Part shown: positions 11,601-58,800 of the stretch, one piece after another
How positions within the stretch are numbered: position 1 is the stretch's first letter
How the letters are laid out: every line of letters starts with the position of its first letter
DNA from: Fistulifera solaris
Lineage: Eukaryota
Length of the DNA stretch: 64,000 nt
Assembly (NCBI GenBank): GCA_030295235.1
Contig: AP026173.1
Location: 186,001-250,000, forward strand
Reading direction: 5' to 3'
Position numbers and translations under genes: made by a program
Notes under the pieces: model-generated
What the model saw: the letters and a program-made list of their open reading frames with translations, nothing else
Databases searched by the model: none
Told to the model about the DNA's origin: nothing

Positions 11601-14600
11601 GCTCTGTCAAATCTTTTACATCGTCGTCGCATTCACCATGGGCGGAAGATTCGTCCCATATGCTCAATACCTCTGCTATTGGCTCACGCCCATGGCCACG
11701 GGTCATCTCTGACACCCAACCCCGATTTGTGCGGTACCTCATGATCCCAGATGAATTTATACACCGATCATCAGCAACTACAACTTCTCCCATTTCCATA
11801 TTACCGACATTTGCACAAGAATCTATCTCCATGCCATCCCGTAGAACAGCGCCCTCTGGACAAACTATTCGCAGCTTATACCGCCGTGCATTAACGCGTA
11901 GCGTCAAACGATTCACTTCGTTTGCCTCAAACCATTCTTCGGTCCTGACTCGACAAACATCGAAAAGTGTCAAACGGTGAAACTCGGCGATCCGTGAGAG
12001 AATGTTCTCAAAGTAAGAGGATGATATTTCCTTTTTCCACTCCCTTTCCGACCGACTCCATCCGGTCATATCTTGGCTCCTTTGCGATGCAGCCTTTATT
12101 GCCATTGCAACGATATTTGTAATCCACTGAATCTGTGCAACGTGGCGTAGATATTTCGAAAGATGTCTTGCTTGATCCAGTGGAAGAGGCTCTTTGCCAA
12201 CTAAATATGGTTCTTCGGGAAATGATTCTATTACAGAACACCCAACATCTGACAAAGGGTTTGTCGACATCGGTCGAAATCATCGAGATAAGACTTCGCT
12301 ACCGCGCCAATCTTTCGAACGAGTTTCAATGTATCGTAGCGGACGTACAAGCTTTTCAAGGTAACTGACAATGCTTCTTCGAGTTTAGAGTGATGCAAAG
12401 TTCCTAAAGACGGCGAACTCATACCAGATACGTGGGATAAAAATTGCAAGCCAGATGGCATCGACGCAGGAAATATCTTGAGTAAAGCGTCTAATCCACC
12501 GGCTTCGACAAAAGCTTCACAATGATCTTCGTTGTGTAGTATTTGCTCCAGCAATTGCGAAAAGTTCATGACATATTGAATAAGACAAGTTCGCATTTCT
12601 TCTACATCCTTCTCCTCATGACGATATCCATCTTCTAGAACTGTCAGCTCGTCTGCGAACAAAACAACTCGATTCATTGCTTCAGATATGGCCTGCAATA
12701 TTTGAGGGCGAAGACGATCTACATGCCGCATAACTTCGTCGAGACCAGTTCCAATCACAGCAGTCATTTCATTAAGAAGACACCGACTTCTAGGCATAGC
12801 ATACGCAGGATGATATAAAACGCGAAGCAGCGCTGGAAAAGGGTTTTTGCTCTTCACCGCCTTAGCACCATCTTCTGTTAGCGAAAACGCCGCAAGAACA
12901 TTTGGTATCGCCATGATCAGCTCAGACACAGCTGGTATTGAGGGGTCACCGCTCTCCGTCGTCCTCATGATCATGTTGATAAAAGCATCAGCGAGCCCCG
13001 ATTTATGAACGTGATTGACACAGTGAGGGTCACTGTTTAGTATTTCAGTGAGCATTGCTGAAACCAAAGCGACGAGGTTGCCGCCGAAAACTTCCACATT
13101 ATCCAGAATAGCAATAAGCGCCTTCTTCAAAACAGGTTTCCTTATTTCAGCACCGCCAGGGAGCGTAGTGCCCGACATGGCAGCAGACGTTGATTCTGGC
13201 TGAAACACAACGTTAAGGCAAGTCAATAAAGTGAACAACAAGACTTGCTGCGAAGAGCGGATCCGAACTGAATTTTCGACTAAAACCATCTCAGAATTTC
13301 CATCCGGGTCGACATATGATATGATTGGTACACCTGTGAACTCAATCTCTCGAGAAAGAACTTTCATCACAACGTCTAGACCACTCAGCTCATGAAACGT
13401 CAACAGAGCATTACCATGCGTGACGAATGCTCCTTCCAGAAGCTGCACAGCCTGGGAAATGACGTAACGCAGCATACACGAAATGCGGACGTCATTTTCC
13501 ACGCCAAGTTCCTTCAAAGTATGAACTGGATCCACCGATACTGTCGTAAGCAAGGTCGGAATAATACCACAGTCCACCAGCGCCGAAGTGCCAGCAGGGG
13601 TGGCAACTACTGCGGATGTCAAGGTAAGGATGCTGTCAATGAAGGCTAAGGCCTGCTCTACTTGGAATTTTCGTGGAACCCTGCTTGAAGTGAGAGCTGT
13701 TGCTTCCAGAAACGCCATGCCGATTTCCAATGACTCGTTTTCGGGCGGGCTTGTCGGTGGCACCTCCGTTGTATGTAGACAGGAGAGCGAATACCGAATC
13801 AACGTCGGTAATACACCAAGGTACTGTCCCTTCCCAACACCCAATTCAATCAAAACAGATGACAATCGAGTTGTCCCCGTCAACGCACCATTCGTTAAAC
13901 CGTCTCTTCGTAAAACGAGAGCGGCCAGCGCTTCGACCGCCAACAGTCGAACCTCATAGGGAATCACGTTCTGCAGCAAGTTCTCCACCGTTGGATGGGG
14001 AGCAACATGTGCTCCACTCACCGTAGGGCGTATCAGATCGACCACTTCCGCACATAATTCGGGTTGGGCAGAAAAGTAATTGGTAATGGCGTCTTGTGAC
14101 GGATGCGAGTGCAGCATGATGATCAAAGCTCGGAGACGGCGTTCAACAGCCTTGATTCGACTATCTCGACAATGAAATGACTTCGCCAAACGAATATCTG
14201 AAAGCAAGGCAAATTGACGCTCCTTCGGAACTTGCGGACACGAAAAGAATAGTTCCGCGGTTGATTTGACGCTGGTGACTTTCCGCCGTTTGTTACTATC
14301 GTCAAACTGTCGATCCACCAGTATATCCTTCCCCGTCAAAACAATCTCCTGCAGATCGGGATTATAATATTTGAAGTGCACTTCCCCAGCTTCCGCTGGC
14401 AAACTTTCCTGTTCGTCCGTGAGAACTGTCGTCTCCAAACCGAGTCCCAGCGCTCGTGTGCCCCAACCGCGCGCACACGCCACCACCCGATGGAGGGGGA
14501 AGTTGATGCAACGACGTGGCGTGCACCGAAGGTTCCGGTGCTTGCTGTTTGTGCAAGGCCGGGGGCAATGCGAGCGCTTGCAAGGCCGCCAATGCCACAT

Positions 14601-15125
14601 CGACAATGTCTTCCGAAGAGGCCGCCAACAACTCCAACAAAATCGAAGTCGACTGATAGATCGATTTGCCCGTCGCATTGCGGAGTATCGTTTCCGTGAA
14701 GGAGAGAAGCACCAGGAGGTACGACATCACTTCCTGGGGTACATCTAAAGTATCTTCCAAGTTTTTGACGTATTCACGCTTCGGATCCTCTGACGGAACT
14801 AGGAGAATCGATCGACTGTGTTTAACCAGAATTGATTCCAAAGCAGCATCGATGACATTCAATTGATGAATCCAGCAATGCAAATCAATCTATGACGTAA
14901 TAAATGAGTACCGAATTCGTTCCCAAAAGTATGACTTTGAAAAACGTACCTGCTGTTCGAGCGATCGCTGATGCACAGGTTGCAACAAATTCACCAATTT
15001 TTCCAAGGAACCCTCAACAAGAGGTAACTTGACAGCCTGCAACTCATCAAAGACATTTTGAAAGACATCATCGTCTAGATTTTTGAGGCTGGATAGCCAG
15101 TTCCACTGGCTAAGATAGTAGGCAT
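2663..15125 (-). CDS. HUWE1/Tom1/UPL1-type giant HECT E3 ubiquitin ligase (split by indels; one 5' intron near 14890-14950)
   Basis: C-terminal HECT domain: EEGIDAGGLSREFF, FRFVGRIVGKA, FLQFVTGSSKVP, then MSAHTCFNSLDLP with the catalytic Cys near 2767 and YAINEGGSAFLFA-stop at 2663-2665. UBM-like repeats (DPEVFNSLP, DPSVLAELPEDIRR) at 5700-6060. Acidic stretch at 7550-7790. UBA (INRLMEMGFTRDHALDA) near 10470-10580. N-terminal armadillo-like DUF908/913-type region. 5' end is approximate. Confidence 0.92.
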
Positions 15126-17659: not shown

Positions 17660-18086
17660 TTTGATTTAACGCCGACGAATTGAAACTCAAATGCCTATTA
17701 TTTTTATGATTCAGTGTAGAAACGACTGAAAATAGCCATCAAGAAAGATCGCAACCGATCGAAGGAGATCTCCATCCTTTCTCAAACGGAAAGGGTTCTG
17801 TACGGCCTCCGTCGTCACACTACTTTCTGACTGATAGTCGAAAGGCTTTTTTCACACACGTCACTCATTGGCTCTGACCGACGTCCGGTCGGCACCCTTC
17901 ATCACCACTGCGACATTTGAAAGCGCACCTTCTCAGAAGTTCCTCGTTTGGATGCGGCTCGAGCAGCTTTTTTTCTTTTTTTCTTTTTTTCTGCCGATCA
18001 TCGAGAAGTTCGCTCTTTTTTTGTTATTTCACAACAACTCAAGTCTTCTTCAATCTCCAAAAAAGACTCGACATTCCCAGAGCAGG

Positions 18087-18866
18087 ATGATTCAATGGCA
18101 AGGCTTTCCTACTTGGGATCTCGAACACGGAATAGTTCGAGCTTGGTGGTTCGATCCGTTCACGGCGACGCTGTCGTTTGCCGTTTTTATCAACTGGTAT
18201 TGGTTTCATGAGCGGCAGTTGGGCTTATCGACGACGCGTCAGTTCTCGGATACACTTCGGCTCGAATTGGGACCATTGTGGAGTTCGGGCTTGGCATATT
18301 GGATCGGAATTTTGATATGGAAATGTTTGGTTCCCCCCGCGGCCGTGACGGACGGTATACCGAGCGATGCTCGAGAATTGCTGTATTTACTTTGCGAAAT
18401 TGGATCCGGTATTCTTCTGTACGATGCCATTTTCTTCGGATTGCATTGGGGTATGCACGCCATTCCGTGTTTCCGGAAATTTCATCATCGTCATCACGCC
18501 GGGACACCAATCGAAGCACGCGATGTACTGCGGCATTCGCTGCTGGATGGAGGCTTACAGGTTCTGGTCAATATTCTGGTGCAGAGGCACACGCCTTGGG
18601 GCATCGCGAAATCTCGATTGGCACGGTTGGGTCACAACGTGATAGTCATTTGGATGTTGACCGAGTCACATACCTCTTCGCCGTATCCGTATCTATGGCG
18701 TCGATGGTTCGTGGGGGTACGCGAACACATTCATCACCACGCAGCGAAAGGAGATGATGCAAAGACAATGAAAGGACGGTTTCATCGTTATCAGCAGTTC
18801 TTCGGGTATTTGGATGATCTGCGAATATGGCTAGGTCGGCGAGAGTGCAGGTCGTCGATCAAGTAG
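18087..18866 (+). CDS. Fatty acid hydroxylase / sterol desaturase superfamily protein
   Basis: His boxes (YDAIFFGLHWGMH, FHHRHH, ESHT, EHIHHH) plus the YQQFFGYLD tail and hydrophobic segments. Confidence 0.85.
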   Translation: MIQWQGFPTWDLEHGIVRAWWFDPFTATLSFAVFINWYWFHERQLGLSTTRQFSDTLRLELGPLWSSGLAYWIGILIWKCLVPPAAVTDGIPSDARELLYLLCEIGSGILLYDAIFFGLHWGMHAIPCFRKFHHRHHAGTPIEARDVLRHSLLDGGLQVLVNILVQRHTPWGIAKSRLARLGHNVIVIWMLTESHTSSPYPYLWRRWFVGVREHIHHHAAKGDDAKTMKGRFHRYQQFFGYLDDLRIWLGRRECRSSIK

Positions 18867-33987: not shown

Positions 33988-34586
33988 GGATCGGAAATGG
34001 TTTGTTCCTTCCGCGACGGTGGAAGATGGTATTCTGAGCGATGCTCAAGAATTACTGTATTTACTTTGCGAAATTGGATCCGGTATTCTTCTGTACGATG
34101 CCATTTTCTTCGGATTGCATTGGGGTATGCATGCCATTCCGTGTTTCCGGAAGTTTCATCATCGTCATCATGCCGAGACACATATTGAAGCGCGCGATGT
34201 ACTGCGGCATTCGCTTCTGGATGGAGGTTTACAGGTTCTGGTCAACATTCTGGTGCAGAGGCACACACCTTGGGGCGTGGCGAAATCCCGATTGGCACGG
34301 TTGGGTCACAACGTGATAGTCATTTGGATGTTGACCGAGTCGCATACATCTTCGCCGTATCCGTATCTATGGCGTCGATGGTTCGTGGGGGTACGCGAAC
34401 ATGTTCATCACCACGCAGCGAAAGGAGATGATGCAAAGACAATGAATGGACGGTGTCATCGTTATCAGCAGTTCTTCGGGTATTTGGATGATCTTCGAAT
34501 GTGGCTAGGTCGGCGAGAGTGCAGGTCGACGATCAAGTAAAGAAACATGTCATAATGATAGAAAATGTACGATTATTTCGTTATAA
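33988..34586 (+). pseudogene. 5'-truncated copy of the fatty acid hydroxylase-family gene
   Basis: ORF 34019-34540 matches the C-terminal ~170 aa of 18087-18866. No ATG, and the N-terminal ~70 codons are absent upstream. Confidence 0.85.
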
Positions 34587-37731: not shown

Positions 37732-39007
37732 TCATTGAGACGCCGGCGTCGGCGGTCGACGTAGCGCTGTGACTGCTATCGATATGTCATCGCGATAGCG
37801 CCCTGCTTGGCTTGCTGCCAGGCTTGAGCGGCGGCAAATACTAAATGTTCACAAGCGGATATAGGATGCACACCCGTGGCCTCAAAAGAGAGTGAGCCAG
37901 TATTTTGGCGATATCTCCTTCGTCTAAATAATCCATCATTCCATCTGTAGCACTTATAGCAAAGATGTAAACATCGTCATCTTCTTCGTGCGATCTCACC
38001 GAGCCGTCATTTTCGACTTGATATCCTTCCATTTCCGTTGCCACAATCGTGGGAATATCCAATACATGCACAATCGGATCCGGTATGACCCCCATCTTCC
38101 CCGCCGCCCAATCCCCAATCGAACGACTCATGGCCAGACCCGTCGGCGCCATCGTTTCGGGATCTTGATACACCACCCGACTGGTCCCCCGGATCGGAAT
38201 GTACACTTGCCCTCCCGCCGCTTCGACACGGGCTTTTTCTTCCGGCAAATTGGGTTTGTCTTCCCGGGTCATGTACACAATTTCACACCGCATCGTCGAA
38301 GGACGGTACGCTACGATAAAACTCCGTGAATCGCCCGCATTGGCCACGTAGATTTTGGATCCCTGCCGCAGAACCACCGTGGCAGTGCAACCCCCGATGG
38401 ATCGGCGGGGACGCGTTGATCCAGTTCAATGAATGTTTCGGACAACATGTTGGCCGTCTGTTTCATAATATCCTCAGGGGAGGAACAGTGTTCCAGTGCG
38501 TTCCGCAATTTGGCCGCGAGTAAGGGCGGCAGCTCGGTCGCGGCAAATTCCGACACTTGTTCTCCCCGCGGCGCATGACCATCAAAGACTCCCATCAGTA
38601 TTCGTTCTTGTTGAATGGCTGCATTCGATGATGATGATGATTCTGTCGTGATATAATACGGAGACACAATGACGGCCCGATCTTGATTGATTTGATCGGT
38701 GAGTTGACCTCCTTTGTACCCAATCAAGGTCAAAGTCACGGCATCCGTCGCGATGGATTCTTGCAAAACACCCACCGAATGTCGATCCGCATGAATTCGT
38801 TTTGTATCACGAATTTTTGGAAAGCTACTTTGACGGCATCGTAATTGTAATGCACATCGTGCGGCTTTTGGGGCAACCATAGTACGGACAGCGCGGATCG
38901 CGTTTGTGCGGAGAAGCTTCCATCGCGGCGGTCGATGACGACGACATGGGCCGCGAACTCCATGCGGCCGCCGTTGTGAGTACAATGAGAGGTGATAGAA
39001 GATGCAT
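37732..39007 (-). CDS. PP2C (PPM) protein phosphatase with N-terminal signal/plastid-type leader (indel-split)
   Basis: QINQDR, MGVFDGH, YVANAGDSR, GLAMSRSIGD, SATDGMMD and YRDDISI motifs. Leader MHLLSPLIVLTTAAA|W. Confidence 0.88.
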
Positions 39008-39528
39008 ATTGTTGGTATTGCTAGTGTTGTGACTCTGTTGGTGCGGAGAATTCGCGATTCGCACGGCAAAGGCCGATCGGACCGAGCGTCGAGAATGATT
39101 ATATGGAAAATGTGATACTGCGGAGCGACACTGTCGTAACATTGCGACAAAACTCGCTTTTTTTCCTGGACGAGAAGCAACAGCTGGAGCAGTAATGGAA
39201 AAAGTGGCTCTCCGTCTTATTTGCAGGACGCCGTCATGGTCGAAACGAAAAAAAAAACAGCCGTTCCAAGCCACCGAAAAAAAAAGCGAAGTTGCTGACA
39301 CGTCGACACGTCACCCTTTCTTCTTTATGGCTTATACTCACGAGCAGTGACTCTGCAAATGGAGTAGATGTCACTCTCTCTGTGACATTCGTCCAGTCAA
39401 ATATTATTGTCGCCAAACGTGGTTTGCTTCAGTCACGAGTTGCCTCATTCTTGTTGATGGTTGATGTCTGATGTCTGATGTCGTTTCATCTGAATCCACA
39501 AAATTATTCACAATAGTAGACTACAATC

Positions 39529-40699
39529 ATGTCCCCTTCTACTTTCTTGGCGTTCTTCTTTCTCCTCGTCGGTGTATCAAGTCGCAACGACGACTCGTAT
39601 TTACTGCTTCCCCGCGATTTGGCGTTTGATTCAACGACACGTCTCGCGCTCCAAAGTCTCCGCCAGTCGCCCGACACGCCCTTTCTCTACTTGCAATCGT
39701 TATTTCCGCATCATTCTTTGGGGGAGCCATACTGGAATCATACCGATTACGGAACATTGGCATTGGTGGGAAGTAAGGGAGGACATGTGTTGGAACAAAT
39801 CAATCAAGATCGGTCCTTTGTTTGGCTTTCTTCCAAAGGAGTATTGTCGGGTGTCATGGATGGACACGGAACGGCCGGTCATTTTGTGGCGGAATACGCG
39901 CGACACGATTTGTTGCAACGCTTCCTGAATGCTACTTCAAACGATATCGAAGCGTGGTTGCACGAGGCGTTTCTACAAACCGATCATGCGATACCGGATG
40001 ATTTGGCACAGCAAGGTGGATGTACCTGTTCTTTGGTCTACCAAAACGGTGAACGAATCTATTTTGCCAATACCGGTGACTCGCAATCCTTTTGGCGGCC
40101 GCCTTGTCGACGGGAATTGACGAAATGCAGGTGCAAATCATGTACGAAACGCGTTTGGACAAACCCGGTCATCCCGACGAGGCGCGGCGGTTGCAACACG
40201 CTGGGGCCCAGGTCACGCCAGAAACCGCAGAGGATGATGCTCGTGTGTGGGCGACCGATCCGACCACGGGACACACCAGTGGTTTGGCCATGAGTCGCGT
40301 CCTGGGCGATCGACAGCATACGGCCGTGATTGCGGATCCTATCATCCAAGTCATTGATTTGAAGGCAATGAAAGAAAAGGTGTTACAAGAATACGATGCT
40401 TATCGTACACAACAATGCCAACAAGTAACGATCCACGCAGATGGTTCCATTGAACCTTGTCCTCTGGCGGAGACACCGGAGGCGGTGCACTTTTTGTGGT
40501 TTCGGCCACCGATGGTGTCATGGATTTTTTGAAACCTATCGAAATAGCACAAACTATGGCTGGTTATTTGTATGGAAACCAAGGGCATCCTTATTTGGGA
40601 ATGGAAGATCTTTTGTGGCAATCGACACAACTGTGGCAACAACACGGACAGTACCGCGATGACATGGCCATTGCGTATGCGAAAACAGTGCAAGTATAG
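39529..40699 (+). CDS. PP2C (PPM) protein phosphatase with signal peptide (indel-split)
   Basis: QINQDR, GVMDGHG, GGCTCS, FANTGDS, GLAMSRVLGD, SATDGVMD and YRDDMAI motifs. Leader MSPSTFLAFFFLLVGVSS. Confidence 0.88.
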
Positions 40700-45437: not shown

Positions 45438-45875
45438 GGATTTGTTTCGAACTAGGTAAATAGGAAGGTTCATCCACCGCAAACAAAAAAGAACGGGCGA
45501 ATAATAATGCGATTGTGGCGCGCTCCTCGCGATTCGCGATCTTGGCGATTGGTGACTGAATCCAGTCGTGACGAAATCCGCCTACATTTTTGTGACTATA
45601 GTAGGGAATGACGAAATCGGCTCCTTACTACGTAGATTGAGCGGAACGAAGTTCCTCTTGTACATAAAGGGATAGAGTAAATCACCGCTACGACACTCTG
45701 TGCGCGGTGGAACCCAGCAGATGTTCTCGCCGTCGGCACGAGCTTTTTCTATTTATTTTCGATCAAACACAAATGCCATGATAAAGAGAGTAATGCAATC
45801 CCATTTCTGTGACCTCTTTCATCCCCAAGTACTTTCTTTCTTTGCTTTGATCCCCTTAATACCTGATTCTTCTGT

Positions 45876-48800
45876 ATGGGTCGTTTTCGGCACCCAATTT
45901 CTCTCATGATTCTGACATTTCTCGCACGGAGTCGATCGCTCGTATGGGTTAACGCGTGGAGTGCATCCTTGCGTACAACAAAGAGAGGGCGAGCACTCTT
46001 CGAACCATTTTATTTCGTGAATAATCGATCCGGTCGTAGCTTGTCGGTATCGGCGGTGGATCTTGCCGATGTCGACACTGAAAGCGCAGACGGATCGTTT
46101 GCATCGGATGCCTTTCAAGTTCAGGCGCCCTTTCCACCGGCGGGAGATCAACCAGCAGCGATACAGGCGTTGATTGAGCGGGTGCAGCAAGGTGATCGGT
46201 TTGCCTTATTGCGGGGTTGCACTGGCACAGGAAAGACGTTGGTCATGAGTCACGTGATTGCCGGCACGCAAAAGCCGACCCTCGTCTTGTGTCACAACAA
46301 GACGTTGGCGGCGCAATTGGCGCGGGAATTGCGGGCCTTTCTCGGACCCGTCGTCGAACTGTTTGTCAGTTATTACAATCATTACCGTCCCGAGTTTTAT
46401 CGCGAAACGACGGGAACGTATATGGCGAAAAAATCGTCAGTCAATCCGGATTTGGACGTGTTGCGGCACCGAGCGACGCGTGCCCTCGCGTCGCGAAGAA
46501 ATGTGGTGGTAGTCGCGTCGGTGAGTTGCTTGTTTGGTTTGGGGCTGCCCAAGGAATATTTGGATGCCTGTGTACACTACAAGACCCATGACCCTTTGGA
46601 TTGGGATGAGTTCGTAGAGAAGTTGACTCGATTGCAGTACCGAATGGCGGTAGACGATGACAGTTTTGAAAGAGGGAAATACCAGGTTTTACACGATGAC
46701 AGCTCGGACTCGAAAGTGATAACCTTATGGCCTCCTTACGAAAAATTCCCCATGCAGCTGGTTGTCGCTCCAATGGCGGCGAATTCGACGCAATTTTCGG
46801 TTCGAAGGATTCTACAAGGAAATCAAGACGGATTTCATCCAATCAACGGATGCAAACTTTTCCCCGCTAGTCATCATGTTACACATGATATGGAAGCGGC
46901 GTGTCTCTCCATTGAGGAAGAATTACAGGAAAGGATTAAATACTTCAATGACATGGGGAACAAAGACGCGTGCAATCGCTTGCAAGTTTCTGTATTAAGA
47001 GACTTGGATCAACTTCGTACTTGGCACAGTTGCAAGGGCATTGAGAACTACAGTCGCCATTTAGCGGGTCGACCTGCTGGCTTACCTCCCGACACTTTAT
47101 TGGATTACATGAGACTACTTAATGGGGATGATTGGCTACTCATGATGGATGAAAGCCACGTGACGCTGCCTCAACTGAGCAGTATGTTTCGAGGCGATCA
47201 GTCTCGAAAGCGTCAATTAGTCAAACACGGTTTTCGGTTGCCATCTGCATTGGACAACCGCCCACTCAATGAACACGAATTCTGGGACCGTGCCAGTCAA
47301 ACAATTTTTGTTTCGGCGACTCCGTCACCCCGTGAACTTGCACTAACAAACAGCGACCCCATAGATATGATCATCCGACCCACCCATGTTTGTGACCCGA
47401 AGATCGAGGTTCGGCCGGCTGATGGAAAGCACATCAATGATTTGATCGAGGAGGTAAAAACTCGCGCAAAGAAAAAGCAAGGAAGTCTCGTTATCACCCT
47501 GACTAAGCGAGATGCAGAAGATCTGGCTAGCCATTTGGAAGGATGTGGTGTGAAGAGTGCGTATTTGCATTCCGGTTTGAAAACGCTCGAGCGCTCGAAT
47601 GCTTTGCGAGCTTTGCAACTGCGAGAAATCGACTGTATAGTTGGCATCAACTGTTTGCGTGAGGGACTCGACTTGCCGCAAGTATCTCTAGTGGCGGTTC
47701 TTAATGCCGACTGTGAAGGATTCCTGCGGTCCGAATCGGCATTGCTTCAAGTGGTCGGTCGTGCGGCTCGAAACGTTCATGGAATGGCAATCTTTTATGC
47801 GAACCGAGTGACAGATAGCATGAAACGGTGCATGGATTTGACAGCGCATCGACGACAATTACAGCTTGACTACAATAAGAAGAATGGGTGTTCTACGAGA
47901 TCAACAACAGGATCTTCGGCGCTATCCTTTTTGATTTACTCAAGGAACAGATTGAGTTGGAAAAGGGCTGATGGCAGAAGAGTCCAAAGCAGTCCAACTT
48001 GCTAGTTTTACTTCGGAGCCTTTACAAATTATTTCTGCTCAGAAAGGAAAAAGTCAGATTGTGACTGACCACATACCGAATACACCCGGCGTTTACTTCT
48101 GGAAAGACGACGAAGGATCGATACTGTATATTGGGAAGGGTGTCAATCTTCGTAGTCGTGTTAAATCATATATTTCGCCAAGTGCCAAACACGGCCCTCG
48201 TATCAAGGAAATGGTTCGGCGAGCCAAGTCGGTTGACGTTGTCTTGACAGCCAGCGAACGCGACGCATTACTTCTCGAATCAAATTACATTAAGCATCAC
48301 CAGCCCCCTTTTAATGTTCTTTTGAAAGATGATGAACATTATCCTTACATTTGTGCCAGTGTGGGAGACTCGATTCCGAGTCTCACTGTTGTGCCATACC
48401 GGAAGCCAGAACATGTCAGTGGATCGTCGCGTTACCGATACTTTGGCCCGTATACGAGCTTCCAAGAAATCAATGCCATTCTTGATGACATAGAGCGAAT
48501 GTATGACTTGAGAGTTAAATCATTCATGACTCGCCAAGGATCTTTGTCGAAAGAAGCATACAATGAGCTCTTTGACAAAGCATTAGAGGAGATTTTCGGC
48601 GACTCCAGAGGGCTTTCTCACAATTTGCGCATACGGCGCCGCCAATACGAAGAGGCGGGGCTGCTATTTGATTCAGAGAGTAATGCATGCAGGGATGTTG
48701 TAACCGTCCAGCTTTTACAAGATGATAAAGCCATCGTGAGTGTGATGCAACTTCGAAGTGGGATCATGGCTGGAAGGTATAAATATACCTGTCAAGTCTC

Positions 48801-49697
48801 CGCTGGTCTTGGGGATGAGGATCTAGGATCGGTCCTTCAGACTGTTCTGACCGAAAGACATTATCCGTCAGGAGGCGAACACTCAACAAGCTGGTTTCCC
48901 GACAATGTGTTACTCTCTCTTCCTGCGTTAGACGTAAAAGTTTTGAAAGAGAGTATTCGAGAAAGTCGTTCACGGATCGAACCGAATAGAAAAGGAAGGA
49001 TTCAAGTTAGGACAGCTGCAACACGTGGTGCGCAGAAGGAAATTGATGAAAGAACTTTAGAGTTTGCAACAAAAACATGTTTCAGGACTTACTTACCCAT
49101 GCCAACCAATACAGCATTTCTTTGAATGGAGATTTGGCGTCCACGGAGTTGGCTGATCTATTGGCTTTAGAAAATCCTCCGTCGCGCATCGAGTGCTACG
49201 ATATCAGCCATACGCAGGGAGAGAATGCCGTTGCATCGAGGGTCGTGTTTGAGAATGGCGAGCCGCAGCCTCACTTATACCGACAATTTGTAATCCGATC
49301 TGTCGTTGGTATCGATGATTATGCTAGTATAGAGGAAGTTTTGGAGCGGCGTTTTCGGCGGGCGTTTAAATCCAATACGGATCTGGATGGAGACGACCCA
49401 TGGGCAGTTCCAGATCTAGTAGTGATTGATGGAGGTAAAGGACAGTTAAACGCAGCTGTAAAAGGAATTTCGAAAGCAGCTGAATCACCGGAAGGCCAAT
49501 TCGATATTCGATCACTAGTCGCCGTATGCGCTTTGGCGAAAGACAAGGAGGAAGTTTTTGTGCCTGGTCGAGGTGATCCAGTTAATGATCACCCCGACTC
49601 GCGCGCTTTGCTTTTGTTGAGAGCCCTCCGTGACGAAAGCCATCGTTTTGCATTGAAGGCACATCGAAAGAGGCGGTCGGTTTTGAAACATGTATAG
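45876..49697 (+). CDS. Apparent UvrB-UvrC fusion protein (bacterial-type excinuclease) with N-terminal targeting leader; indel-split near 47930-47970 and ~49075
   Basis: UvrB: PAGDQPAAI, GCTGTGKT, HNKTLAAQL, FVSYY, GIENYSRHL, DESHVT, GFRLPSALDNRPL, VSATP, LREGLDLP, GRAARN. UvrC: GVYFW...LYIGKGVNLRSRV (GIY-YIG), ALLLESNYIK, RIECYDISH, DDYA, PDLVVIDGGKGQL, LRDESHRFA. Confidence 0.88.
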
Positions 49698-49764: not shown

Positions 49765-51201
49765 TCATTCGTAAAGTGACGACCCTTCCGCCTCCAACTT
49801 CTTTCCAATATTTACAAAATCCACAATTTGATCCGGATCCGACGCCCCCACAATGATTTTATCAATGCCCTTTTCTTTCCACACATGCCGTAAGGCAAAC
49901 TCTTGTAATCGCATGTCGTCTGGCACAGGATACTTGGGAGAATCCCCACCACCATCTTCTCCATGGATCAACAGATGTCGCACATTTTTGGCGATTGAAT
50001 ACTTGACCGCCAAATTGAACGCCCCAAAGAATGCCTCCAAAACTTTGGCCGTATCTTCGTCGTAGGACTCGAACGTGTCATGGATCAAAGGAATGACTTG
50101 TTGCAGCAAAAATTCTTCGTGCGCCGCATAGGATCGCACTCGATCGAGACCCGCATCCACATCGTGCAACAAGCTCTGCATGAGCTTACATCCATCCAAC
50201 GTTTCTCGTTGATCGGTATCCAATTCAATCCCTTGTGACTTGAGTTCCAAAATTTCTTCAGCATCAAAATGTGCCATGGCGGCCTTCAATGCGACTTGAT
50301 AGGCTTCCGGAAGTCCTGTCATTTGATGAGTCCATTGCAGTGGATCGTTCTTGTTCATAGTGGCGGGTAGTAAATAATCGCGCAACACAAACGGATGTGA
50401 GGTGGAAGTTCCTCGATCCGGATAACACGACAACGGCCGCATGGCATAATATTGAATGTGTGCGGGTGCATCTTTCTTGCTCTTTAGAAAATCAGAATGT
50501 TCCAACAGGTTGTAAGGGAATTGTACGACACAAAAATCGGGCGTATCTTGTTGCAACGCGGGCGCCACGTGGTGCAGCCAGGACAAATGCAAGGGATGCG
50601 TCGGAGGCAAACTGAATCCATTGCTAACAATCCCGTACGAATGCAAAGGACTCTCACGAACGAGCCTTTGAAGTTCTCTACAAGATTCTGACAATTGATG
50701 AGCCAGTGTTTCATCCTTCTGATCTTGTAGATTGTGATTCTTTTGGACTTCAGGATTGTGCAGCAAAACGACCAATTCAAGATGATCCGGATATTGTTCC
50801 GCCAATTTCATCAACGGCGACTGTGTCAAAGCGTAATCCAAGTAATTGGGTCCTATATTGTGCAATACTCGATTTTTTTCAACGACGACATCGCCCGGAA
50901 AGAAGTTACCGTGAATTTCTTCGGTCCCCGTTTCGGCTTCCGCGACGGATCGATATCCGACTCGTAAGAGACATTGAATTTTGCGGGGCATTTCCTTTTC
51001 TAAAATTTGTGCCAACGCCGCATCCCCTCCTTCCGTTCCCGCTTCGATACACGAGATACCTTGTTGTACAGCGGTTTGCACGAGGAGTGGATACTGCGAC
51101 GAACGCCATTTCGAGCCGCCCAAGCCGAGGCGATCGATTGCCACTGTCGATAGACATCGTTTACTGATTGTTATTCTTCTTAATAGCGTTGAGGGAATCA
51201 T
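49765..51201 (-). CDS. Aldo-keto reductase-like (NADP-dependent oxidoreductase fold) protein, probably mitochondrion-targeted
   Basis: RLGLGG, VLLHNPE, YGIVSN, VQFPYNLLE and IIVGAS resemble AKR segments. Arg/Ser-rich leader (MIPSTLLRRITISKRCLS). Confidence 0.6.
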   Translation of the reverse strand: MIPSTLLRRITISKRCLSTVAIDRLGLGGSKWRSSQYPLLVQTAVQQGISCIEAGTEGGDAALAQILEKEMPRKIQCLLRVGYRSVAEAETGTEEIHGNFFPGDVVVEKNRVLHNIGPNYLDYALTQSPLMKLAEQYPDHLELVVLLHNPEVQKNHNLQDQKDETLAHQLSESCRELQRLVRESPLHSYGIVSNGFSLPPTHPLHLSWLHHVAPALQQDTPDFCVVQFPYNLLEHSDFLKSKKDAPAHIQYYAMRPLSCYPDRGTSTSHPFVLRDYLLPATMNKNDPLQWTHQMTGLPEAYQVALKAAMAHFDAEEILELKSQGIELDTDQRETLDGCKLMQSLLHDVDAGLDRVRSYAAHEEFLLQQVIPLIHDTFESYDEDTAKVLEAFFGAFNLAVKYSIAKNVRHLLIHGEDGGGDSPKYPVPDDMRLQEFALRHVWKEKGIDKIIVGASDPDQIVDFVNIGKKLEAEGSSLYE

Positions 51202-51763
51202 TGTCTTGCTTGATGGTTATTCAATATGAATAGTAAGAAAGGTTCGTGAAGCGGCAATGCCTTGTAGAATGATGATAGACATCATCATTCATTTCATGGT
51301 CGATGCTTTTTTCGCAAGATCTTCGCTCGATCTTCCTTGATCTTCCGTTCGAAATGCTTCCACGAGCGAAGGACAGAACGCAACGGAAATGTGACCTGGT
51401 GTGACGTGACCACGAACTCTAAGTATCCGAATTTTGAACGGACGAACGGACGACGAAACGTTTCCTGTCTAGAGCTATAGTGTACAAACCTTCTTTTTGT
51501 CAGGTACTTTCTGGTAAATACTCCAGCACAGAACTTCCACCTATGGCCCTTTACTACTGTTTTTGGTTAGAATGATGTCAGCGCAGAACTGCTTGGTATC
51601 TTCGCAAAGCTGACGTATTCAATGTTGTTTCTCCCCCTCGCACGGCGCGCCACCGCAAAACACAAACTTTCTCGCAAACGGAGCCGGCTGCTTTTGAAGT
51701 CAAACGCCCTCTGTTGCAACAAAACGAAACGGCCTTGTTCTGAAGAAGACACGTTCATCAACG

Positions 51764-53271
51764 ATGATTCGAACAATCCTCAATCTCTTGCTCTTCTTGC
51801 ATCTCTTGGTGCAAGGAGACGCTTACGCGTACGGCTATGGCGGCACCTCCATGTGGGACAAAATGCCGGTCATGACGTCGGACGCCTCGGAGCCCGCCCA
51901 CCGGTCGTACAATTTGGCTCGAAATGGTGGATACGGGTACATGGGATACGATGGATGGGGCGGATACGGAATGAATCGTTATTCGCCCTACATGAGTTAC
52001 GGGTAAGTGGAGGAAGCGCCCGGGCGTGTTGCAAAATTCCGAGGCCTCACTGACTGGGGCGTGCTTTCTTCTTTCTTTTGCAGAGGTTACAACGATTATT
52101 ACGGCGGATATGGTCGTGGTTATTCGTCGTACGGGTACGGAGGATATTCGCCGTATTACAATAGGTAAGAAATGAGAGCCTTAGTGCTGTCTCTGAAAGA
52201 GAAAGGTTCCTGTCATGAAGTTCTTGCGGAGGTTTCCTGATTCTCACTTGTTCCCTTCCTTTAGGGGATACAACGATTATTACGGAGGATACGGACGTGG
52301 CTACGGATACGGAGGTTATTCTCCTTATTACAACAGGTAAGTTTATGTTATTGTTGTACGTAGAGGAGCCCGTTCGGTTGTCTGTGAATGAGGCAGCCTT
52401 CACTTCACGTGTACAAGTCATGTTGTATTGCATCCGTTTATCAAATGTCTCACGCTGTCCTCTTCTTTTTTGTCCTTCTTCAGTGGGTACTCTTCGTACG
52501 GATACGGAGGTTACTCCCCATACTACAGGTAAGAGCTTTGGAGTTGCTATTATTGCCAAGTTGACTTGAACATTTTTCTGCTGGCCTGTCTTGATGATTC
52601 GATTTGCAGATAAAAATGTCTTCTGTGTGACTGTTTCGTCTCATGCTTTCGTCTCATTCTTTTCTTTTAGCTCGTACGGCTATGGATCTGGGTAAGAACG
52701 TCGTTCGCTCATTTCGTAAAAATGCCTGCTCGAGCTGGTGTCTCATTCTTCTTTTAATTTCTTATTCATTCAGCAGATACGGCGGATACGGTGGATACGG
52801 TGGATACGGAGGCTATGGAGGTTATGGCGGATACGGTGGATACGGCCTCAGCTCGTACTACCGCCCCTACGAGTCGGACAAAATTGCTCGCGTGAGTCGC
52901 TGGACTGGCTCGGATGCTCGATACGGATACGACAGCTACTACCCTCGTTCGTACGGATATGGCTACGGTGGTGGCTACGGCGGTGGCTACGGCGGTGGCT
53001 ATTACAATAAGTAAGAAGATAAAGTTGGTGTTGGGATGATTTTGCCATCGTTTGCCTCATTGTTGTATTTGTCTCTTCCAGCTATTATGGCGGCCGCTAT
53101 GGTTCTGGCTATTACAATAACGGATACTACAATCCTTACAACAGTTACTACAACCGTGACCCCTACGCGATGAACCGAGGATACGGCATGAACTGGGGCT
53201 CGTCGTGGAGATCTCCTTTGTCTCCGGACGATATCACGTCGCGCAAGTCCTACTTTGACTGGCAGGCGTAA
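51764..53271 (+). CDS. Secreted Gly/Tyr-rich protein, 7 exons: 51764-52002, 52084-52164, 52265-52336, 52484-52528, 52671-52691, 52774/52777-53010, 53082-53271 (~294 aa)
   Basis: Signal peptide MIRTILNLLLFLHLLVQG. Six GTAAG...YAG introns with pyrimidine tracts join the exons into one frame of YGG/GYG repeats ending WRSPLSPDDITSRKSYFDWQA-stop. Confidence 0.88.
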
Positions 53272-54021
53272 ACTTCCATACCAGATACTATATTCTTGAA
53301 TGTTTTCCAATACTATTTTAAAACGATTAACCATGTGTTGTAATGTTAAGTTAGGTCTCTAGATTAGGTCTGGGATCTTACGTAGGTTTCGGTTTGTGTT
53401 CGTGGGGAACTTTAGTTGGTTCCGCAGCCGAGCGCCAACGCTTTCCATGGAGTTGGGCGTTAGACCCAAAGATATCGAAGCTCACACGATAGGAAAGAAG
53501 AACGCTGATGATAGGTGGATCCAAGCAAAGAGAAACTAATCGAGTTAGGAGCATTGGCGATGAAGGCAGATGGTCATCCGTTTGGGTGGGTCTCGTTATC
53601 TCTTCACGCTCGCTCATTCGTCCATTGTTGTTCGACAGTTTTTCGCCCGAAGACGGTCAGTACTGCCAACGTCATACATGTTGATTGACGACAGCTGACC
53701 ACTTTTCATCTCTGATAGAGTAGTGTACGATTTCTGGATGACGTGGGTTTGCGCGCCCGTCGAGCACACAAACTGCAACCTTCGACGACCACGTCGTGGC
53801 AAAAAAAGTCTTGGGGGGTGGAGAAAACCCAAGTTTTTGCGCGCGCAAGGGTACGCACTTTCTTCGTTCCATTCTTTTGACACCCATCGCATTGTCGTGT
53901 CCTTCATTCTCTTTCTTCTGATTCTTCCAGTTCTCTCTCTTTTCGAACCAGCATTCCTCTGTCTTCCTTTTTCCCATTGTTGACGCTTCCTCTTTCTATA
54001 AAGCAGCAAACAAACAAAACA

Positions 54022-55836: not shown

Positions 55837-58800
55837 TTAGAAGCCCTCAAAAGAGCCATATGTTTATCGCTGAGAGGAGGTCCTTTGTCCAACGTCTTGT
55901 CGGTCACACCACTCCAATCATCAAAGTTTGAAGTGTCGAACAGACTCTTGATCGTGGGAATCCATGGAGCTTGTATTGCTCGCTCTCTCATTCTGACCGT
56001 GCTGAGATCACCGAACCACCTATGACTTAAAATGTCTTTTTCTCCGCGAGCCAAGGAACCAAGACGGTTTGATGGAGACTTTTCCAGTAACCTTGAAATG
56101 AAGTCAACCGCCTCCGGAGATCGTCCTTCCAATTCGGGAAAGTCTTCTTCAACGATCAGCCGATAAAGTTCGAACTGCTCAATACCGTCCTCATAAAAGG
56201 ACTAAAGCCCATGACCATTTCATAGCTCAAAACCCCCAGTGCCCAGTGGTCGACAGGCCAACTATGGCCTTGCGATATCACAATTTCAGGTGCAAGGTAG
56301 GCCGGGGTGCCACAAAGGGTGAATGTTTGATCCAAGACTTTCTTTGTGAAGCCGAAGTCGATCAGCTTAGGAAAACCAAACCTGTCGAGCATAACGTTTT
56401 CAGGTTTGAGATCGCGGTATACATATTTCTTTTGATGCAAATGAGCCAGGGCATCTGCAATTCCCAGCAAGTAAAAGCGAGCTCTATCCTCGTGTATCTT
56501 GATCCGACCGTCATCATTGTTGAGAATTGAAAATAGCTCTCCGCCTGGCACAAAATCCAGTAGCATATAAACAAATGCAGCGTCTTGAAAGGTTTGGAAA
56601 AGATCGATGATGAAGGGATGGTTCACATTCAGAAGAACATCTTTCTCGCGCTTACAAACCTCTACCTCTCCTTCGGTAATAAGGTGGTACTTCGATTGGA
56701 TCTTCAAAACGTAGGGTTGCTGCTTCTTAGCCTCCTTGTCGACGACCAACCAAACCTGACCAAATTCTCCTTCACCCAAACAAACCCGTCTTTCCAGGTT
56801 TTCAAGCTTGATATTCAGATTGAGGCTTGCCTTCGGCGAGTATAAGTGAAGATTATCATTGTCAAGGGCATCGGAAGATGATTTTGCTTTCTTGGCCTTT
56901 TTCTCATCTTTCAATGTACGTGGTTTCGAACTTCTAGTGCTTTCAGCTGTCACTTCAACATTTGCCTTTGTCGACTTCGGAGAAGCTAGTGGACTCTCCA
57001 TAGCGTTAGTATCGTTTGTAACAACGACTTGATCACCAAAGAACGCATAATAATCTTTCACGGACAGAACACCGCACGTGCAGTCGGATTCTGCAGTTAC
57101 TTTGGACAACGACCTCCCCTTCAGCGACTTATTATCTCTGGCCGACTGAAATAAGTTCTCCCCAAAATGTGCCCCTTCGGAAATCAGAAGTAAGTTTCGC
57201 CCCTCCGTTTCATAGACCTTCCCAGATCGAACGAAATAAATTGCAGCATCTACGTCTTGATCGGCTTCAATGATCGTGTCGCCTTTTGAATATTCGACGT
57301 TCTTAATCAACCGAGTTAGACCCACAATTTCGTAGTGTTTCAAAGGTCTTCCAGGTTTTCGTTCAAAAGATCTTACGGAATGAAGAGTTCTGGAATGAAT
57401 CGGAACCAAACTGGAACCCATAGCTTGGTCTTTGAGTTCTCTCGATACAACGTAGGCCTTTCCGTGAGTCAAAGCAACCACATTTGCTTTCATGATTGGT
57501 TCTTCGGCGAGTATTGCATGTTTTCCAAAGTAATCACCAGGGCCCATAATTTTGTTGTCTTTACTTAAACGGCCAACCTTTACGTCTCGGCACTCCACAC
57601 TACCTTCTGCTATCAAGAAAAACTTGTCGCCAATGTTGTCTTGCTTCGCTAAGGTTTCGCCTTTTTGAACTTGACGAGGGTGAGCAGATTGGAAAGCTTG
57701 TGGAGCTGTTCTGTCGACGCATTCTCTAAAAAGTCGAGCTTTTCTAATAAAGCTCGCTTGTGTACAGTGCTCCTAGTCGCCTCGTCCTGAAGCAAGTGCC
57801 TGAAGGTCGTCTGGTCGAATCGGTACAAAACTGAATCGGTAGTAGCCGTTGCAGATGCAAGACGACGTGAGTTGTGCAGCAATGCTTCCTCACCGAAGGA
57901 ATCACCATTCGTTGCCACATCATGCCTTTCACCATCAATGATAATGTCACACTGTCCGTCAGCGACGACATAGAAGTACTTATCCTCGTCGCCTTGCGCA
58001 AACAACTGGGTCCCCGCTGGAACATTGACCTTTTCGAATGCAGCTGTGAGTGACTTAATGGTCTTGTCAGGTAAATTTTCAAAGACGAATCGCTTTTTGA
58101 TTGCATTCTTCAGAAGTCGTTCCTCTTGATCCGTTTTTGGGTGTCGAGGAGCTTTAAAATTTGTAGGCAGCTTGGTTGGGACCTGATAGACATTACCAGC
58201 CTGACGTATAACAGGTACACCGTCTTTTCCTCCTTGGTCCTCGAAACGAGCTATTCTGGCAATAAACGAAGCTTTTTTCTTTTCTCTTTCGCGGAGAAAG
58301 TAGCGGGCCTGACAACTTCTTGGGTTGAATAGGGCTTAAGTCAGGTTCGACTATCTTTGTTTCTGCGCGCTTCTTCTTTTCCTTTTTCTCTTTCTTGTCC
58401 TTCTCTTTCTTACTGCTTTTCGACTTTTTTGGCGACGACTTAGGAGACTCAAACTCAGCGAGTGGTGGCACTGGAATCGGTGCAGCGTTTGAGGGGTCTT
58501 TTATTTCTTCAGTCGCATCGTGACGCATCGAAGATTCGCCGTCGTCCTCGTAGAGCTCTTCATCCGCTTCATGAATTACTTCCGGATGCTTATCGGCATT
58601 GAACACCTCGCGTATAGGACCGTCTTCATTGGAGAAGCTTTCGGATCCATCTTGCCATGTTTCGACGAATAGGCCTCTATTGCACTGTACAGGCAGAGAG
58701 AATCGATGTCGCTCCTTGGTGGGTGAAGTGGGCTCGGAAGAAGCAGAATCTGAATGATTACTGTTGTCGAGAGGACGTATAACTGCCGGGCCATTCTGCT

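Follow-up and report, generated by a model that had tools for sequence, protein, structure and literature searches.

A seven-exon gene of Fistulifera solaris with duplicated module exons, encoding a putatively secreted Gly/Tyr-rich orphan protein

The stretch of DNA analyzed here, called the window, consists of 64,000 nucleotides (nt) from the diatom Fistulifera solaris (assembly GCA_030295235.1, contig AP026173.1, positions 186,001 to 250,000 of the forward strand), and positions are counted from its first letter. The region 51764-53271 on the + strand is almost certainly a genuine, transcribed gene with seven exons, encoding a small Gly/Tyr protein that seems to be secreted; this high confidence applies to the gene model and its expression. 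The whole set of observations is explained best, and on balance probably, by a lineage-restricted secreted structural protein which is insolubilized or made sticky via its tyrosines.

The coding sequence of 882 nt (293 codons) specifies a pre-protein of 293 amino acids (aa). Its start codon, the ATG at 51764, is the first ATG of a stop-to-stop frame opening at 51698. All six introns are in phase 2 and begin with a GTAAG donor, and each of them ends with a YAG acceptor after a pyrimidine tract. The five internal exons are all multiples of 3, and each is symmetric, with phase 2 on both sides. A first-pass annotation, made by a model from the letters of the window, had described six introns in 1.5 kb, all in phase 2 with GTAAG donors, and this is borne out by the reading of the sequence together with the RNA-like contigs described below.

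A search found five sequencing runs, and the contigs of four of them (X1, X2, X3, and X5) were compared with the locus. X1, X2, and X3 come from one study, which is perhaps the source of the assembly itself; X5, a metatranscriptome from fresh water, belongs to a second study. The X1 contigs cover all 30 bins evenly, introns and flanks included, and are thus DNA-like. In X2 and X3, 18 of the 30 bins are covered, all of them touching an exon, and the depth is 0 in the bins that are wholly intronic. X5 covers five bins and contains a chain of exons 4, 5, and 6 with no differing letter over 240 nt. When the two studies are combined, six of the six junctions are seen in RNA-like contigs. The use of the predicted junctions by transcripts had been named as the test of the gene model; the RNA-like contigs do use them. 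Contigs 246 nt long in X2 and X3, in two sequence versions in each run, connect the last part of exon 1 with exon 6 and include all of exons 2-5. It should be mentioned that contigs do not reveal rare isoforms, transcript starts, transcript ends, or expression levels.

At the start of exon 6, the first-pass annotation had noticed a NAGNAG acceptor (cagcag, 52771-52776), which is present as described. The distal AG (exon starting after 52776, at 52777) gives an exon of 234 nt, and the proximal AG (exon starting after 52773, at 52774) gives one of 237 nt, both in frame. Its internal exon lengths of 81, 72, 45, 21, and 237 nt are therefore right for the first four and right in being multiples of 3, whereas exon 6 is 234 nt long with the acceptor used in the RNA. 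The 21-nt micro-exon 5 that it had pointed out is included in RNA-like contigs of three runs from the two studies. The exons and introns are as follows.

51764..52002, + strand: exon 1, 239 nt; contains the start codon and codes for the hydrophobic leader, the N-terminal invariant island, and the first Gly/Tyr stretch; X2 and X3 contigs pass 52002 into exon 2 letters.
52003..52083, + strand: intron 1, 81 nt, phase 2, GTAAG..CAG; loose ends on both sides spell the neighboring exon (X2, X3).
52084..52164, + strand: exon 2, 81 nt; encodes the Gly/Tyr module GYNDYYGGYGRGYSSYGYGGYSPYYN; contigs of X2 and X3 extend over it.
52165..52264, + strand: intron 2, 100 nt, phase 2, GTAAG..TAG; 100-nt GT..AG joint in X2 and X3.
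52265..52336, + strand: exon 3, 72 nt; second copy of the exon 2 module, without SSY.
52337..52483, + strand: intron 3, 147 nt, phase 2, GTAAG..CAG; 147-nt GT..AG joint in X2 and X3.
52484..52528, + strand: exon 4, 45 nt; copy of part of exon 2 (GYSSYGYGGYSPYY); spanned by contigs of both X2 and X3.
52529..52670, + strand: intron 4, 142 nt, phase 2, GTAAG..TAG; joint in X2 and X3; in X5, a 17-letter loose end of exon 4 stands before exon 5.
52671..52691, + strand: exon 5, 21-nt micro-exon; included in X2, X3, and X5 contigs.
52692..52776, + strand: intron 5, 85 nt, phase 2, GTAAG..CAGCAG; NAGNAG at 52771-52776; spliced joint in X5, and in X2 and X3 loose ends with the letters ATACGGCGG, corresponding to the distal acceptor.
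52777..53010, + strand: exon 6, 234 nt; (YGG)7 run, central invariant island, and (GGGY)3.
53011..53081, + strand: intron 6, 71 nt, phase 2, GTAAG..CAG; GT..AG joint with a shorter side of 143 letters, in X2 only.
53082..53271, + strand: exon 7, 190 nt including the TAA; Tyr/Asn-rich stretch and conserved C-terminus; RNA-like contigs continue to 53308.

Two kinds of contig match were set aside. Two joints listed as skipping 151 letters carry extra letters between their sides, and are regarded as a second version of the gene, imperfectly aligned, with no exon skip. In five further X5 contigs, the match is confined to 33-41 nt of the repeat that codes for GGY and contains one to four differences; these contigs are taken as repeats of other organisms.

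The intron density of this gene, six in 1.5 kb, is far above that of the neighboring genes. The earlier statement that other genes in the window have 0-2 introns holds, in a rough check, for most neighbors, which consist of one long open reading frame (ORF), but a HECT ubiquitin ligase gene has at least three introns, because it is read as four ORFs. In Phaeodactylum tricornutum, 0.7 introns per gene are reported (PMC5859163), far below the six found here. The exon-duplication architecture is unusual for such a compact, intron-poor genome, yet it is known in principle.

The repeat part of the gene seems to have grown by duplication of a module exon. The peptides of exons 2 and 3 are identical save for one 3-residue indel, and the exon 4 peptide equals that of exon 2 minus an internal stretch of 11 residues. 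At the DNA level, exons 2 and 3 differ at 10 of 69 aligned nt, in addition to the 9-nt indel, and all of these differences are at synonymous third positions. Exons 2 and 4 differ at 8 of 42 aligned nt, in addition to a 33-nt gap, and no amino acid is changed. The repeat common to exons 2 and 3 (repeat family D5) amounts to 85% over 41 nt, and the context TATTACAA(T/C)A(G/A) immediately before GTAAG is common to the ends of three exons (repeat family D11). The paralogy of exons 2, 3, and 4, proposed in the first-pass annotation, is thus confirmed by peptides that are identical apart from indels and by DNA differences that are silent, and it supports the proposal made there that the gene expanded by exon duplication. 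The many silent changes among the three exons indicate that the duplications are old. Alignment of the flanks revealed no similarity past the splice signals among the introns that border exons 2, 3, and 4; from the shared phase and junction context only, we infer that the introns were duplicated along with the exons.

The combination of silent changes with identical peptides shows that selection has kept the exact sequence of the module, beyond its composition. The exact module peptide is thus maintained under strong purifying selection. A comparison of the window with the other contigs listed 36 differing letters, of which two in the 3′ untranslated region were left out. Each of the remaining 34 coding differences is at the third position of its codon; 33 of them leave the amino acid unchanged, and one replaces Asp by Glu at residue 19. 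The four coding indels between the window and the contigs (+3, -3, +18, and -3 nt) are all multiples of 3.

At least one second version of the gene, either an allele or a paralogue, is present in the X1-X3 contigs (window 51764-53308). It has approximately 7% silent differences in exon 1, a 5′ flank that cannot be aligned, an additional GGT codon, and an 18-nt insertion in exon 6 that corresponds to six Gly/Tyr residues.

The product is dominated by two residues, Tyr at 24.9% (73 residues) and Gly at 24.6% (72 residues), which together make up 49.5% of the chain. They are followed by Ser (10.9%), Arg (5.8%, 17 residues), and Asn (5.8%), with Pro at 4% and Trp at 2%; there are three Lys residues, no Cys, and no N-x-S/T sequon. 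The mature chain has a mass of about 30 kDa and is basic (isoelectric point about 8.7). It contains 33 [G/S]Y[G/S] motifs, and the overlapping counts of GYG, GGY, and YGG are 23, 18, and 18, respectively. No other Gly+Tyr-rich frame was found in the 64-kb window. Residues 2-16 are hydrophobic, with an 11-residue Kyte-Doolittle mean of up to 2.47, and are followed by QGDAYA, so that the leader extends over residues 1-18 or 1-22. After residue 25, the highest 19-residue Kyte-Doolittle mean is -0.45, and there is no other hydrophobic stretch. The leader is likely a cleavable signal peptide for the endoplasmic reticulum, and the product would then be secreted. The secreted Tyr/Gly-rich product suggested earlier fits this arrangement of a hydrophobic leader, small residues after it, and no further hydrophobic stretch.

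Searches for known domains and structures were negative: the translations of the three long exons matched no Pfam family at E values up to 1, and a relative of the protein, P0001, matched no Protein Data Bank sequence at E values up to 1. The AlphaFold2 model of P0001, made from a 5-row alignment, has a mean predicted local distance difference test (pLDDT) value of 41.2 and no residue at or above 70. The sole helix in this model is formed by the first 19 residues, which are probably outside the real protein.

P0001 (192 aa, 77% identity) was the only one of 32 candidates retained in a search with exon 7 among longer proteins, and a search with P0001 among proteins of similar length gave only itself from 360 candidates. 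Neither search, both of which would admit a protein of 293 aa, gave a full-length gene model. A HMMER profile made from P0001 and exons 6 and 7 found two proteins among 1.84 billion representatives: P0002 (58 aa), which matches the last exon, and P0003 (63 aa), which matches the core of exon 6. The search with exon 1 gave P0004 (81 aa, 99%) and P0005 (87 aa, 72%), whose clusters add P0006 (236 aa) and P0007. The known relatives are thus short ORF calls of 81, 87, 58, and 63 aa, a 236-aa read-through, and a 192-aa 3′ half. P0004 and P0006 both stop precisely at the point where exon 1 passes into GTAA, which yields Gly followed by a stop codon. The relatives have the appearance of ORFs called from one exon each. 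In P0001, the initial 23 residues seem to be read-through intron, since they end like a translated pyrimidine tract followed by CAG. P0004 and P0006 also represent two further versions of exon 1, which are on other contigs.

Three islands are conserved among these proteins.

51857..51910, + strand: N-terminal invariant island, residues 32-49, DKMPVMTSDASEPAHRSY; invariant in five of five aligned sequences (window, P0004, P0006, P0005, P0007).
52847..52939, + strand: central conserved island, LSSYYRPYESDKIARVSRWTGSDARYGYDSY; its core SSYYRPYESDKxARVSRWTGSDARYG is identical at 25 of 26 positions in the window, P0001, and P0003.
53152..53268, + strand: C-terminal conserved island, NRDPYA ... SPLSPDDITSRKSYFDWQA; 43 invariant columns among exon 7 of the window, P0002, and P0001.

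The C-terminal island runs from NRDPYA to SPLSPDDITSRK(S/T)YFDWQA and is highly conserved in three of three sequences. The Gly/Tyr runs between the three islands differ in length among the relatives. Judging from these searches, the protein appears to be a lineage-restricted orphan, and its family is very small in the collections searched. The main texts of the literature searched gave no pertinent report of diatom micro-exon genes or GY-rich proteins, the one match for the latter being about a pearl oyster, and no paper containing the two island peptide strings. On Tyr- and Gly-rich wall proteins of diatoms, nothing pertinent was noticed among the listed papers apart from PMC4220933 and PMC5298957.

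A metagenome scan with the C-terminal alignment gave 592 pattern matches, two of which (L001 and L002) passed tblastn. Both were rejected as relatives: they are long uninterrupted ORFs that match only the Tyr/Asn-rich stretch, with 48% and 44% identity, and on reading alone they look like bacterial outer-membrane proteins.

The composition of the protein and its likeness to known systems point to a structural or adhesive role through tyrosine, for which we regard the chances as about even. In the proposed mechanism, the leader would send the pre-protein into the endoplasmic reticulum and then out of the cell, where the protein might be a building block of insoluble extracellular material, such as the organic matrix of the cell wall, a casing, or an adhesive. 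The Gly/Tyr runs might associate through aromatic stacking and Arg-Tyr (cation-π) contacts, which would give cohesion. Oxidative Tyr-Tyr coupling by peroxidase and H2O2, or a similar tyrosine chemistry, would then fix the runs covalently and make the material insoluble. The conserved islands may serve as sites for assembly, docking, or sorting. In Amphora, secreted Tyr-rich modular proteins have been described, one of which, AC3362, is found in the insoluble, biosilica-associated matrix (PMC4220933), and for the insoluble organic matrices of diatoms it has been proposed that H2O2 mediates the cross-linking of Tyr-bearing proteins (10.1101/2021.09.18.460806).

Several points weigh against this proposal. 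The functional step draws on composition and analogy, and an alignment of five rows makes the AlphaFold2 model weak evidence for disorder. The chain has only three Lys in 293 residues, without the Lys-rich clusters that target known diatom wall proteins, and it bears no resemblance to the Pro/Thr/Ser-rich proteins of adhesive trails. Cleavage after AYA (residues 20-22) would leave Tyr at the +1 position. Tyr is among the +1 residues accepted in the plastid-type bipartite leaders of algae with complex plastids. As cited in PMC4220933, one study found no 3,4-dihydroxyphenylalanine (Dopa) in Amphora, and a mussel-type Dopa glue is doubtful for diatoms, at least for Amphora. The adhesive-trail proteins described so far in a raphid diatom are rich in Pro, Thr, Ser, and Gly and are glycosylated, and they are not Tyr-rich (10.1101/2023.03.06.531300).

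Among known systems, four Amphora coffeaeformis proteins (AC1077, AC714, AC4076, and AC3362) resemble the product in having a signal peptide, modular repeats, and no BLAST homologues (PMC4220933). They lack a transmembrane helix, and their Tyr content exceeds 10 mol-%; the Gly content of AC1077 is 23.4 mol-%, and AC3362 is in the insoluble wall matrix. The Tyr share of 25% found here lies far beyond the cut-off of 10 mol-% used for screening in that study, whose text makes no mention of introns (PMC4220933). The Amphora proteins are Lys- and/or Pro-rich, whereas the present product has 1% Lys and 4% Pro. The cingulins (CinY/CinW) and silaffins of Thalassiosira pseudonana are secreted, low-complexity, Tyr- or Trp-rich proteins of the insoluble girdle-band matrix (PMC4220933, PMC9650480), and the predicted leader and Tyr-/Trp-rich low-complexity regions of the product agree with this trait. 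They are targeted by Lys-enriched regions or pentalysine clusters (PMC9650480), and no such cluster is present here. Among stramenopiles, the PoStr proteins of Pythium oligandrum are small, Tyr-rich oospore-wall proteins needed for a resistant wall, as cited in PMC5298957; the present product, also small, Tyr-rich, and from a stramenopile, resembles them in description.

The glycine-rich proteins of plant cell walls have a signal peptide and GGX/GXGX repeats with Tyr and are proposed to play a structural role in the wall (PMC5298957), a combination of leader and repeats that is also found here. They constitute a compositional class without sequence similarity to the product, which has three unique islands and six phase-2 introns. 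Genes of these plant wall proteins usually have about one intron, and tyrosine-based insolubilization has been proposed for their products. In the ESM Atlas, the best score was 0.78, below the level of 0.9 from which a likeness counts as more than a lead; the nearest clusters (0.75-0.78) include animal Gly/Tyr matrix proteins (Prisilkin-39-like proteins and arthropod Gly/Tyr proteins) and a schistosome antigen, and with neither an alignment nor the islands, the likeness to the animal proteins is considered to be convergence of composition only. Richness in motifs and low pLDDT (41.2 for P0001) are shared with FUS-like [G/S]Y[G/S] domains. The intracellular RNA-binding context of those domains (RRM, RGG, nuclear) is absent here, where a leader is present and the three long exons contain no Pfam domain.

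The first-pass annotation had likened the gene to the micro-exon genes (MEGs) of schistosomes. Both have secreted products and symmetric internal exons with lengths in multiples of 3, and both tend to be missed by automatic annotation. A MEG consists of 10-20 exons, each 6-81 bp long and most of them 15 bp, with introns of 0.1-5 kb and many verified isoforms (10.1101/2023.06.21.545858). In contrast, the present gene has seven exons, four of which are 81 nt or shorter and hold 219 of the 882 coding nt (25%), its introns are 71-147 nt long, and no isoform was seen. The analogy therefore fails on exon number, on the share of coding sequence in short exons, and on intron length. There is no sequence link to MEG proteins either, with no Pfam family and an Atlas score of 0.75 for miracidial antigen 8I'. 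A broader idea, which we consider improbable, is that the gene corresponds, in a protist, to the modular matrix genes of the elastin or MEG type: the islands would dock a condensate-forming Tyr/Arg sticker protein in the wall or adhesive, and the number of module exons would tune its mechanical or adhesive properties. Between species, duplication would have fixed that number, and in-frame skipping under conditions other than those sampled might vary it further.

The symmetric exons might be cassettes, so that regulated skipping and the choice at the NAGNAG acceptor would yield isoforms with different numbers of Gly/Tyr modules. The arithmetic of the first-pass annotation, which stated that any subset of the internal exons can be skipped in frame, is correct: joining any donor with any later acceptor keeps the frame, and the computed junction codon is Gly, Arg, Ser, or Asn and never a stop. 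The cagcag acceptor is present, and more than a thousand genes of P. tricornutum are reported to undergo exon skipping (PMC5859163). The actual production of isoforms, also proposed there, finds no support in the RNA, where all contigs that bridge internal exons show full inclusion and the distal AG: a pair of 246-nt contigs from X2, another such pair from X3, and the contig from X5. Among the joints listed for X1-X3 and X5, neither an exon-skipping joint nor the proximal-AG form of exon 6 was found; contigs drop rare forms of either kind, which makes this a lack of support and not a disproof. Moreover, the symmetry of the exons follows automatically if an exon is copied together with a phase-2 intron, and it requires no function in splicing. 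Regulated cassette splicing is thus quite unlikely to explain the gene.

Other alternatives concern the fate of the protein. With Tyr and Arg as stickers and Gly and Ser as spacers, it might form a secreted coacervate or gel without covalent links and act as an adhesive, mucilage, or transient template. The 33 [G/S]-Y-[G/S] motifs, the 17 Arg against three Lys, and the lack of Cys, sequons, and a predicted fold agree with such a protein, and Dopa-independent coacervation has been discussed as an adhesion mechanism in Amphora (PMC4220933). The present data do not separate this non-covalent version from the cross-linking one, and the known trail proteins of a raphid diatom, being Pro/Thr/Ser/Gly-rich and glycosylated (10.1101/2023.03.06.531300), speak against it; we consider it rather unlikely. 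It is very unlikely that the leader is the initial half of a bipartite signal for plastid or periplastid targeting, or that the protein is retained in an internal compartment. The Ala-x-Ala cut (residues 20-22) would indeed put Tyr at +1, and in algae with complex plastids an aromatic residue at this position is a mark of plastid import. Nevertheless, the 25 residues past the candidate cut contain two Asp and one Glu against one Lys and one Arg, a balance that is not transit-peptide-like, and the cut site reads AYT-M in the relatives P0005 and P0007. Furthermore, we know of no plastid role for a chain with 25% Tyr and 25% Gly. Processing of a precursor into short Tyr-rich peptides, in the manner of silaffin precursors, would suit the modular build and the single Arg or Ser at the exon-exon joints. 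However, the modules are not separated by repeated dibasic or RXL-like sites, their lengths differ, and conservation is highest in the unique islands and not at the module borders, all of which make such processing most improbable. A secreted structural protein acting through its tyrosines seems to remain the best explanation.

The surroundings of the gene are ordinary in character: a Pfam scan of 48 neighboring ORFs gave ordinary eukaryotic genes, none of them peculiar to diatoms. The HECT ubiquitin ligase mentioned above (2730-14726, - strand) is a giant HUWE1-like protein with DUF908, DUF913, UBM, and HECT domains, encoded over 12 kb in four long ORFs. Two ORFs with a fatty acid hydroxylase domain (17838-18866 and 33989-34537, both + strand) are about 16 kb apart and may be paralogues. 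PP2C phosphatase ORFs are located on opposite strands about 1 kb apart (37844-38425, - strand, and 39520-40290, + strand). At 45867-49694 (+ strand), three consecutive overlapping long ORFs encode, in this order, ResIII/Helicase_C/UvrB, GIY-YIG, and the RNase H endonuclease domain of UvrC. They resemble a pair of bacterial-type UvrB and UvrC genes, or perhaps a single gene that is spliced or fused, amid eukaryotic genes. The divergent upstream neighbor of the Gly/Tyr gene (49768-51216, - strand) has no Pfam match at 1e-5, and the ESM Atlas groups it with bacterial aldo/keto reductases (features 0.92, TM 0.71-0.83). On the other side, at 56156-58335 (- strand), cNMP-binding domains are followed by a protein kinase domain over two ORFs, which resembles a cyclic-nucleotide-dependent kinase.

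The gene is well supported and encodes a probably secreted Gly/Tyr-rich orphan within an already known compositional type of structural protein. The sequence collections searched contain only single-exon pieces of its family, which means that genes of such a build are easily missed by automatic annotation in intron-poor protists. The insolubility of the organic matrices and glues of silica-walled algae is poorly explained, and tyrosine cross-linking has been proposed for it without a named substrate. An expressed and strongly constrained protein with 25% Tyr is a concrete candidate for such a substrate.

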